Source: Escherichia coli
GTDB taxonomy: Bacteria; Pseudomonadota; Gammaproteobacteria; Enterobacterales; Enterobacteriaceae
NCBI RefSeq assembly: GCF_036507355.1
Contig: NZ_AP027877.1
Direction: 5' to 3' (one strand)
Length of the DNA stretch: 64,000 bases
Below, one piece after another: positions 12,001-15,000 of the stretch. The position numbers are program-made. Positions within the stretch are counted from its first letter, which is position 1; each line of letters begins with the position of its first letter.

Positions 12001-15000
12001 GATGAGGTGATCGCCGGGGTGCTGCCGGACGGTAAAGCCGAAGCGATTAAACGCCTGCAAAGTGAAGGACGTCAGGTGGCAATGGTGGGCGACGGCATTA
12101 ACGACGCGCCAGCGCTGGCTCAGGCGGATGTCGGCATTGCGATGGGTGGCGGCAGTGATGTTGCTATTGAAACCGCGGCGATTACCCTGATGCGCCATAG
12201 CCTGATGGGCGTTGCGGATGCGCTCGCTATTTCCCGCGCAACGCTGCGCAACATGAAGCAGAACCTGCTCGGCGCGTTTATCTACAACAGTATCGGTATT
12301 CCGGTCGCCGCCGGTATTTTGTGGCCGTTTACTGGAACGTTGCTTAACCCGGTAGTTGCCGGAGCGGCAATGGCGCTCTCGTCGATTACCGTAGTGAGTA
12401 ACGCCAACCGGTTGCTGCGGTTTAAACCGAAGGAATAAGTACATCATTGCGGATGCGCTGCTTTAGGGTGGCGCATTTGGCATCGACGCATGACTGCCGG
12501 ATGCGGCGTGAACGCCTTATCCGGCCTACGGTTCAGGCACAGGTTTGTAGGCCTGATAAGACGCGTAAGCGTCGCATCAGGCAATGGTGCTCGGATGCCG
12601 GATGCGGCGTGAACGCCTTATCCGGCCTACGAGATGAAGCGATGTTTTGGCCTTACGCGACCTTTTTTGCACGCTCTTCACGGCGTGCCAAATATTCAGC
12701 CACTGTTTCAATCCGTCCCAATTCTTCCTGGGTGCGCATGTTGTTTTCAACTTCCCAAAGATCAACTGCCGCCTGGAGGTTTAGCCAAAAATCGACTGTG
12801 GTATCAAAAAATTTCGCCAGACGGAATGCCATTTCAGTGGTGAGTTTACGATTATTATTGATCAGTGTACTGACGCTATTACGATGAACATGCAGCAACT
12901 CTGCTAACTCATTGATTTTCAAAGCGAGCGGTTCCAGATATTCATAGAGAAGAATATCTCCGGGTGTCGTCGGTTTTCTTGTTGCCTGTTTCATAGTTTT
13001 TAACTGTTGCTTCCCTGTGAATAGCGATACAAGAACATACTGAATCATACAAACACATTAAACAAGTCCCCAACTCCATTTGCGCCATCCCTCACCGCGC
13101 GCTAGCATGATATTTCACAAAGGGAGGTCGTATGGATCTGTTGTACCGGGTAAAAACGCTTTGGGCCGCGCTGCGCGGTAATCATTACACCTGGCCTGCC
13201 ATCGATATCACCCTTCCCGGCAATCGCCATTTTCATCTGATTGGCAGTATTCATATGGGTAGCCACGATATGGCTCCCCTGCCCACCCGTTTGCTCAAAA
13301 AGCTCAAAAACGCCGATGCGCTGATCGTCGAGGCGGATGTTTCCACCAACGATACGCCTTTTGCTAATTTGCCTACTTGCGAGGCGCTGGAAGAGCGCAT
13401 TAGCGAGGAGCAACTCCAAAAACTGCAGCACATTAGCCAGGAGATGGGCATTTCTCCCTCACTCTTTTCTACCCAACCGCTGTGGCAAATCGCGATGGTT
13501 CTTCAGGCGACGCAGGCACAAAAACTGGGGCTGCGGGCAGAATACGGTATCGATTACCAGCTATTGCAGGCGGCGAAGCAACAACATAAACCCGTGATTG
13601 AACTGGAAGGGGCGGAAAACCAGATTGCCATGTTGCTCCAGCTCCCTGACAAAGGACTGGCGCTGCTGGACGATACGCTGACCCACTGGCATACCAACGC
13701 ACGGTTGCTGCAACAAATGATGAGCTGGTGGCTGAATGCGCCGCCGCAAAATAATGAAATAACGCTGCCCAATACGTTCAGTCAGTCGCTGTACGATGTG
13801 CTGATGCATCAGCGAAATCTCGCCTGGCGGGATAAATTACGCGCCATGCCGCCGGGGCGATATGTGGTCACGGTCGGTGCACTACACCTGTATGGAGAAG
13901 GGAATTTGCCGCAAATGTTGCGCTAAAAAAATGGCCAATATCGCTATTGGCCCGTCAAAGAGGAATTTCATTTTTTTATTATTATGCCGTCACTTTAAGC
14001 GACGGTGTAACTCGATTGTCGCTCAATCTCACCATCCTGCCAATACTCTTAGGCAAGATGACTCTTTTTTTTGGACCGCCATCAGGCGTATGCTTGCTTC
14101 GTTTTTTTGTTTAAGGCAGGAAAATTACCATGACACCCGCAGTTAAATTACTCGAAAAAAACAAGATTTCGTTTCAAATCCATACCTACGAGCACGATCC
14201 GGCTGAAACCAATTTTGGCGATGAAGTCGTCAAAAAATTAGGTTTGAATCCGGATCAGGTCTACAAAACGCTGCTGGTGGCAGTGAACGGTGATATGAAA
14301 CACCTTGCCGTGGCCGTTACGCCGGTCGCAGGTCAACTGGACCTTAAAAAAGTAGCAAAAGCGCTGGGTGCCAAGAAAGTTGAGATGGCCGATCCGATGG
14401 CCGCGCAGCGTTCGACGGGGTATCTGGTAGGGGGGATTAGCCCACTGGGGCAGAAAAAACGTCTGCCAACGATTATCGACGCCCCTGCACAAGAATTTGC
14501 CACTATTTATGTTTCCGGCGGTAAGCGCGGGCTGGATATCGAACTGGCGGCAGGCGATCTGGCGAAGATCCTCGATGCCAAATTTGCTGATATCGCCCGC
14601 CGCGATTAAGCATTGTGCCGGATGCAAATATCCGGCACTTTCGGATTACTGCCAGCTCACCTCACCTTTCGGTTCATAAATACTCACATCCAGCGGCGAG
14701 CTTTTCTGGATATACGCTTTCAGCACTTCGGCATCAATAAAGCCGGTATTCACATAGCCCGGTTTGTTATCAAGGCGCGGATAGCCATCACCGCCGGTGG
14801 CATTGAAATTTAATGTCGCCATACGGTAAGTTTTCGCTGGATCGACCGGTTCGCCTTTGATTTTCAGGTCGTTCAGTTTGCCGTCTTTCGCCACAAAGCT
14901 AACGTTGGCAAATTGCGGGTAGGCACCTGAATCTGGCTTCATCTGCGCGACGGCGGTCAGGTAATCAATCACCTCTTTACCAGTCATGTCGGCATACACC

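Follow-up and report, generated by a model that had tools for sequence, protein, structure and literature searches.

Within a 64,000-nt stretch of the Escherichia coli contig NZ_AP027877.1 (assembly GCF_036507355.1; hereafter the window), the gene ybaQ lies at 12653..12994 on the minus strand, between copA (9934..12438, plus strand) and the divergent ybaP (13132..13926, plus strand); its product was named a solitary antitoxin by RASTA-Bacteria in 2007 (PMC2374986). RefSeq genomes label the identical locus copA, ybaQ (HigA family antitoxin), ybaP and ybaK. The ybaQ open reading frame (ORF) starts with an ATG at 12994 and encodes 113 aa plus a stop codon. The frame is open to an upstream in-frame ATG at 13048, which would give 131 aa if used, but the annotated start stands because the crystallised E. 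coli YbaQ (PDB 2EBY, 113 aa) and all homologues start at MKQATRKP. The window protein is identical to 2EBY at 110/113 residues. It matches Pfam HTH_3 over residues 16-70 (E = 2.3e-9; 37.6 bits, cutoff 23), giving it an XRE/Cro-C1-type helix-turn-helix (HTH) DNA-binding domain, and over residues 6-84 it scores 103.9 bits, above the curated cutoff of 47.7, against NCBIfam TIGR02607, 'HigA family addiction module antitoxin'. An AlphaFold2 model built from an alignment (predicted local distance difference test score, pLDDT, 73) and the HTH_3 match place the HTH motif at residues 27-47 (12854..12916, minus strand), with predicted helix 2 at residues 27-34 and recognition helix 3 at 38-47, and the model adds a C-terminal helical extension (residues 85-113) beyond the TIGR02607 match. 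The description of ybaQ in the sequence-only reading, as a 113-aa HTH protein of the HigA type, is thus borne out by ORF, HTH_3 and TIGR02607.

The last six codons (12656..12673, minus strand) encode RAKKVA, which is catalogued for YbaQ as the ClpXP recognition signal 'C-motif-2' (PMC9775585, Table 2) and is intact here. The YbaQ tag has been employed as a synthetic degradation tag (PMC2907309, PMC6195910), and similar basic-hydrophobic-Ala C-termini are present in most homologues. The presence of the ClpXP signal predicts antitoxin instability for the window allele as well.

No toxin gene adjoins ybaQ. On one side, the copA and ybaQ stop codons are separated by a repetitive extragenic palindromic (REP)/bacterial interspersed mosaic element (BIME) cluster (12440..12652, no strand assigned), and on the other side 137 bp of intergenic DNA lead to ybaP. 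We found no HigB-like toxin (PF05015) directly upstream of the antitoxin in the window. A tblastn search with the cognate HigB-1 (see below) at E up to 1000 gave no match in 12440..13131, and its best match in the whole window had E=0.18, at 19791. We also searched the six-frame translation of the 64-kb window, all filters off, with a profile hidden Markov model (HMM) built from 11 HigB homologues; the best match had E=1.0. Among the nine small flank ORFs, none matched a Pfam family at E<=1, and the Rfam matches were all to the REP-derived naRNA4, none to a regulatory RNA. An overlooked toxin gene adjoining ybaQ, which would make the module complete, is effectively refuted by these results: small flank ORFs are present, such as one of 48 aa at 12942..13088 (minus strand), but none shows HigB similarity by tblastn or family HMM or a Pfam match, the 137-bp upstream gap is too short for a 100-aa toxin and the downstream gap is the REP cluster. 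The sequence-only reading had placed ybaQ between the copA REP cluster and divergent ybaP with no toxin-like ORF adjoining it, and both points held, with no HigB/RelE-like fragment found by six-frame search in 12440..13131 or elsewhere in the window. The 48-aa ORF, out of frame with ybaQ and covering its start, and a 146-aa ORF antisense to ybaQ (12447..12887, plus strand; likewise no Pfam match) are probably spurious.

Allelic forms of the copA–ybaP locus

Of 5,426 complete E. coli genomes, 5,422 gave a match to a 451-bp probe spanning the 5′ ends of ybaQ and ybaP, and the locus took several forms. Approximately two thirds of these genomes carried the window type (a share obtained by subtraction), ∼23% had higB-1 together with ybaQ, and ∼11% were without ybaQ. 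In the window type, ybaQ and ybaP are 143 bp apart (ATG to ATG inclusive), and the same 143-bp interval was present in K-12, FORC_044, 14EC033 and three divergent Escherichia lineages (L007, L008 and L011; ybaP synonymous divergence, pS, 0.19-0.26 from E. coli). That these seven genomes, the three divergent lineages among them, share the interval points to a single origin of the toxin-less allele.

The toxin-bearing allele is 333 bp longer and includes, 35 nt upstream of ybaQ, a gene of 303 bp annotated as 'RelE/ParE family toxin'. Its 100-aa product, HigB-1, matches Pfam PF05015 (HigB-like toxin) with 110 bits. HigB and RelE belong to the RelE-fold family of ribosome-dependent mRNA endonucleases. 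Strains with higB-1 upstream of ybaQ included APEC E18055, WP4-S18 and CFT073, and the 5,426 genomes contained higB-1 DNA at 1,267 chromosomal places in total. The CFT073 gene (L023, 901..1202) is 302 bp rather than 303 bp and is annotated as frameshifted, and in Nissle 1917 it is likewise 302 bp. As both copies are one base short, the toxin is decaying within phylogroup B2 too. A partial higB match in HS-02 (88%, 145 nt) was considered as an intermediate decay state and rejected as noise from a homopolymer-ridden assembly; there (L005, 1500..1820, NZ_CP172818.1) the higB region is made up of long homopolymer runs and the ybaQ frame continues past its stop, which looks like uncorrected long-read assembly error, not biology.

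Junction mapping against APEC E18055 defined a 70-nt segment specific to the toxin-less allele (13001..13070, minus strand). These 70 nt stand where the toxin-bearing allele has 403 nt, comprising the higB-1 promoter/operator, the coding sequence and a 35-nt spacer with a Shine-Dalgarno sequence (GAGAAAGG) 7 nt before the ybaQ ATG; this Shine-Dalgarno sequence is not in the window allele. On the side of ybaP the two alleles are collinear as far as 13071, and on that of ybaQ from 13000 downwards. The ybaP-proximal intergenic DNA (13072..13131, no strand assigned) is common to all allele types, as seen when the window, L002, L003 and L004 were aligned and compared by BLAST. The 13071/13072 junction is a breakpoint common to the higB-1 indel and to the unrelated filler of L004 (below), and therefore marks the edge of a variable segment. 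A proposed origin of the downstream half of the 70 nt from the higB–ybaQ spacer was dropped, as the alignments were no better than shuffles.

In a further class of ∼594 genomes, which covered <80% of the probe, ybaQ is absent. E. coli NMBU-W13E19 (L003, 2423..2593) has a clean deletion of ∼371 bp that leaves only the last seven ybaQ codons, fused to upstream DNA of the toxin-less type and to REP-less downstream DNA. As the remnant joins toxin-less-type upstream DNA, this form arose from the toxin-less allele, and the antitoxin was lost after the toxin. In E. coli ETEC1738 (L004, 2133..2500), ∼375 bp of unrelated filler replaces window positions 12439..13071, with a full match in 347 genomes. 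Roughly 270 bp of this filler is an unannotated repeat with a median of 3 (up to 8) copies per E. coli genome, which suggests a miniature inverted-repeat transposable element (MITE)-like element. The syntenic ybaQ of Escherichia sp. E1V33 (L011, 4001..4342/L012) is frameshifted near residue 93, with an altered C-terminus and no degron, and this strain also has an intact higBA pair, like that of phage-plasmid D6, on another contig.

Published work bears directly on the toxin-bearing form. Rousset et al. (bioRxiv 10.1101/2020.05.25.114553) found ybaQ to be essential in 5/18 strains, and their locus analysis suggests that these five belong to B2/F and have higB-1 upstream; CFT073, which has a truncated toxin, did not require ybaQ. 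In strain S88, knock-down of ybaQ strongly derepressed higB-1. Chromatin immunoprecipitation with exonuclease treatment (ChIP-exo) had been performed on K-12 YbaQ by Gao et al. in 2018, with the binding regions entered into a motif search and a ybaQ deletion built (PMC6237786), and Rousset et al. state that the ChIP-exo motif is present in the higB-1 promoter. Because ybaQ is essential only where higB-1 is intact, YbaQ probably neutralises HigB-1 (bioRxiv 10.1101/2020.05.25.114553). Rousset et al. concluded that most clades had lost the toxin, and phylogroup D both genes.

The HigBA family and its operator

A family scan, in which each prokaryotic species was represented by one genome, returned 13 YbaQ-family loci. 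Three of them, flanked by copA and ybaP, were syntenic and had no toxin gene. The remaining ten were non-syntenic and encoded proteins of 65-82% identity in Trabulsiella, Enterobacter, Kluyvera, Sodalis, Brenneria, E. albertii and other Escherichia. In all ten, a HigB-1 homologue (58-79% identical) ends just upstream of the antitoxin gene. YbaQ therefore belongs to a true toxin–antitoxin family.

Relatives are also mobile. We found 175 plasmid records with a relative, among those listed 88-95-kb E. coli/Salmonella plasmids and 4.5-4.8-kb Klebsiella/Enterobacter plasmids, and 63 E. coli plasmids with a higB homologue. The HigA of phage-plasmid D6 is 77% identical to YbaQ. The pair on E. coli plasmid pB2C_96 has a HigB 80% and a HigA 74% identical to chromosomal HigB-1 and YbaQ, respectively, and shares the 17-bp operator core GCACTTGCGCACAGTGC with the chromosomal higB-1 promoter. 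The N-terminal 23 residues of YbaQ and the pB2C_96 HigA are almost identical, whereas the C-terminal 20 differ strongly.

A common operator, AnGCACTTGCGCACnGTGCnnnnGTGCnnTAnnnT, was present in all 12 higB upstream regions compared. It is a palindrome of four GCAC/GTGC tetramers in the pattern GCAC-N4-GCAC-N-GTGC-N4-GTGC, overlaps a TTGCGC −35-like hexamer and the 17-nt spacer, and ends beside a TAnnnT −10. From this arrangement, the shared element is predicted to combine promoter and operator. Upstream of higB in Brenneria sp. 4F2 (L017, ∼3500..3560), four tandem copies of an 8-nt unit, GCACTTAC, precede the operator; this unit resembles the first GCACTTGC unit of the operator, an expanded binding-site repeat. 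In E. albertii NBRC 107761 (L019, ∼3600..3630), the 7-nt ATGACCA is repeated four times in tandem at the higB start, creating several in-frame or out-of-frame start codons.

No intact operator pattern was found in the 64-kb window at up to 3 mismatches, and the window thus lacks the operator through which a complete HigBA module would be autoregulated. We then scored ∼128,000 window positions with a position weight matrix (PWM) made from the 12 higB operators. Real operators scored 47-56 bits, and the best site in the ybaQ–ybaP interval (13071..13034, minus strand; GGGGACTTGTTTAATGTGTTTGTATGATTCAGTATGTT against the consensus above) scored 0.2 bits, with all four GCAC/GTGC half-sites mutated. 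This site ranked 2nd among the ∼128,000 positions, or 5th when the E. coli higB-1 promoter was left out of the profile, and its score was reached by 11-21 of 200,000 shuffles of its 38 nt. Its position coincides exactly with the expected start of the higB promoter, and its orientation is correct. On this basis, 13034..13071 is probably a mutated, decayed relic of the higB promoter/operator. A mutated relic here suggests that the toxin was lost from an ancestor that had the pair, not gained, and this is the direction of change that we infer. The best PWM match elsewhere in the window (6427..6464, 0.8 bits) was set aside as being at noise level.

Conservation of YbaQ and the window allele

The YbaQ protein is identical (WP_000806442.1) in K-12 and FORC_044, which are toxin-less, in APEC E18055 and WP4-S18, which are toxin-bearing, and in CFT073, with its frameshifted toxin. 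Pairs of ybaQ genes among these five strains showed 0-7 synonymous and 0 non-synonymous differences. As the protein is identical despite synonymous changes, orphan ybaQ is in general still constrained.

The window protein differs from WP_000806442.1 by D24A, A43T and V62F, with no synonymous difference between window ybaQ and its nearest alleles. In the AlphaFold2 model, residue 24 is in the loop before helix 2, residue 43 (codon 12866..12868) lies within predicted recognition helix 3 and residue 62 is at the end of helix 4. A43 is kept in 11/11 other family members aligned. The A24/T43 combination also occurs in Escherichia sp. MOD1-EC7003 (L007, 4001..4342), which has zero synonymous ybaQ differences from the window, whereas its ybaP differs from window ybaP by a pS of 0.23. 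This combination of a near-identical ybaQ with a divergent adjacent ybaP indicates that the ybaQ segment moved recently between Escherichia lineages by recombination. Three substitutions are too few to tell drift from adaptation.

Probable origin and possible present role of ybaQ

We put at about 85% the probability that window ybaQ is the stand-alone antitoxin gene of a chromosomal type II higB-1/ybaQ (HigBA) cassette between copA and ybaP. This reading builds on observations made here or in the cited papers: the identity and family of ybaQ, the absence of a toxin in the window and its presence at the orthologous site in other strains, the pairing of homologues, the conservation of the operator and its loss here, and the conservation of the protein. 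In the intact cassette, of the B2/F type, a single promoter would drive higB-1 and then ybaQ. YbaQ would repress this promoter through the operator and counteract HigB-1, assigned by family membership as a RelE-fold mRNA-cleaving toxin, and ClpXP would turn YbaQ over via its C-terminal RAKKVA. In the window, the toxin gene, the Shine-Dalgarno spacer and a functional operator are absent, and in their stead stands the 70-nt segment, the upstream half of which is relic-like. With toxin and functional operator gone, the locus cannot act as a toxin–antitoxin system in cis, and very probably the ancestral site of autoregulation no longer works. The retained gene most likely still makes a short-lived DNA-binding protein, and intact ybaQ has most likely persisted in the role of a DNA-binding protein acting on other targets, of a trans-acting antitoxin, or both. 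The sequence-only reading had offered two possibilities. A remnant of a decayed toxin–antitoxin module is supported by higB-1 in B2/F, the pairing of homologues and the probable operator relic. A solo antitoxin acting as a transcription factor is compatible with the K-12 ChIP-exo data (PMC6237786) and with derepression in S88; as to function, it is only one of the roles weighed below. Both the solitary-antitoxin and the decayed-module readings had already been published.

Several points weigh against the stand-alone antitoxin reading or parts of it. The toxin-less form also occurs in divergent Escherichia lineages (few genomes sampled), and by a simple count of events B2/F could therefore have regained the toxin by recombination. 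The relic test was chosen post hoc, after the sequence had been seen, and uses the profile score only. Pairwise alignment of the 70 nt with the 403 nt (global with cheap gaps, and local) was no better than that of dinucleotide shuffles, which reached the observed score in 608/2000, 1912/5000 and 3321/5000 cases. Upstream of ybaQ in the window allele, no consensus sigma-70 promoter, terminator or inverted repeat was found, nor a good Shine-Dalgarno sequence; expression of orphan ybaQ is therefore only presumed from sequence. Finally, published binding and neutralisation data may not transfer to an allele with D24A, A43T and V62F.

For the present role of YbaQ, we considered a transcription factor acting elsewhere, a trans repressor or antitoxin against mobile HigBA modules, and a relic in this lineage. 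That YbaQ was kept after toxin loss as a host transcription factor regulating other chromosomal genes is a tentative possibility. Binding regions were obtained from toxin-less K-12 (PMC6237786), the resulting motif recurs in the higB-1 promoter according to Rousset et al., and only synonymous changes separate the genes of five lineages, two of them toxin-less. But no YbaQ regulon or phenotype was found reported in the papers examined, ybaQ is dispensable without the toxin (bioRxiv 10.1101/2020.05.25.114553) and has been deleted or replaced in ∼11% of complete genomes, and the 64-kb window has no operator-like site beyond chance. It is doubtful that ybaQ is instead a functionless relic drifting to loss, at least in the window lineage. 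The three amino acid changes without a synonymous one in this sub-lineage, with T43 where all 11 other members have alanine, would fit such drift, as would the missing ancestral Shine-Dalgarno sequence and operator and the further decay seen as a frameshifted ybaQ (E1V33), the 371-bp deletion (L003) and replacement by a repeat element (347 genomes). However, the window allele keeps its reading frame and degron, synonymous divergence elsewhere has left the protein sequence unchanged, a test would need more than three changes, and the allele is also found in a divergent Escherichia lineage, which suggests spread rather than decay.

Less expected is a trans-acting role, which we regard as unlikely, whereby YbaQ would neutralise and repress incoming HigBA modules such as those of D6-like phage-plasmids and so blunt post-segregational killing by these elements as an anti-addiction factor. 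Potential targets are close in sequence: HigB and HigA of pB2C_96 are 80% and 74% identical and share the operator core GCACTTGCGCACAGTGC with the chromosome, HigA of D6 and of the listed 88-95-kb E. coli/Salmonella plasmids is 77% identical to YbaQ, and the near-identity of the N-terminal 23 residues and the number of records (175 plasmids with a relative, 63 E. coli plasmids with a higB homologue) point the same way. The strongly different C-terminal 20 residues speak against such cross-reaction, as does the changed recognition helix (A43T) of the window allele. We hold it to be quite improbable that orphan YbaQ owes its retention in most E. coli to trans immunity against the HigBA of D6-like phage-plasmids and related plasmids, with decay of its own operator having freed its expression and A24/T43/F62 being re-specialised rather than drifting.

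Returning to the stand-alone antitoxin reading, the closest known system is higB-1/ybaQ of phylogroups B2/F, the same gene at the same site (copA-ybaQ-ybaP), with YbaQ identical at 110/113 positions and the same C-terminal degron. Compared with this module, the window is without the 303-bp higB-1, the operator/promoter and the Shine-Dalgarno spacer, has 70 nt instead, carries an added REP cluster downstream and differs by D24A, A43T and V62F. The HigBA modules of D6 and pB2C_96 resemble it in their antitoxin (74-77% identical), toxin (80% identical to HigB-1), toxin-first order and operator core, but are complete and mobile and have a different antitoxin C-terminal tail. A single XRE-type HTH is shared with the solved HigA structures: YbaQ itself (2EBY), Coxiella VapI (3TRB), Pseudomonas putida GraA (6F8S/6F8H), E. 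coli CFT073 HigA (2ICT) and Proteus vulgaris HigA (4MCX). Apart from 2EBY, the similarity is remote (E 1e-13 to 8e-6), and YbaQ has the C-terminal helical extension (residues 85-113) in addition. For the chromosomal ccd of Erwinia chrysanthemi and the F-plasmid ccd, Saavedra De Bast et al. reportedly made an anti-addiction proposal in 2008, with experimental support. That system is likewise a chromosomal relative of a plasmid-borne toxin–antitoxin module that could neutralise a mobile toxin, but it is a complete chromosomal pair, whereas ybaQ is an antitoxin gene only and would have such a role by analogy.

The solitary HigA-type ybaQ, its cognate higB-1 in B2/F, its DNA binding and its ClpXP degron were already published and have little discovery value here. 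To these, the present analysis adds the operator of the HigBA subfamily, the probable relic, a stepwise decay series, the atypical window allele and the D6-like mobile relatives. The ybaQ locus is a textbook example of stepwise decay of a toxin–antitoxin cassette within one species, running from the intact pair through a toxin first frameshifted and then lost to an antitoxin that is itself frameshifted and, finally, deleted or replaced. The additions could guide experiments on why orphan antitoxins persist.

The REP cluster downstream of ybaQ is outside the toxin–antitoxin cassette, and the toxin-bearing allele has a 57-bp spacer in its place (L002, 1247..1303). It contains an Rfam RF02564 naRNA4 (REP-derived) match at 12550..12627 (87.1 bits), and a query containing the cluster matches a median of 34 places per E. 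coli genome. The length of the copA–ybaQ region varies, from 213 bp in the window and ∼315 bp in K-12 to 57-61 bp without REP in the toxin-bearing allele and L008. Therefore, REP insertion came after toxin loss in some lineages.

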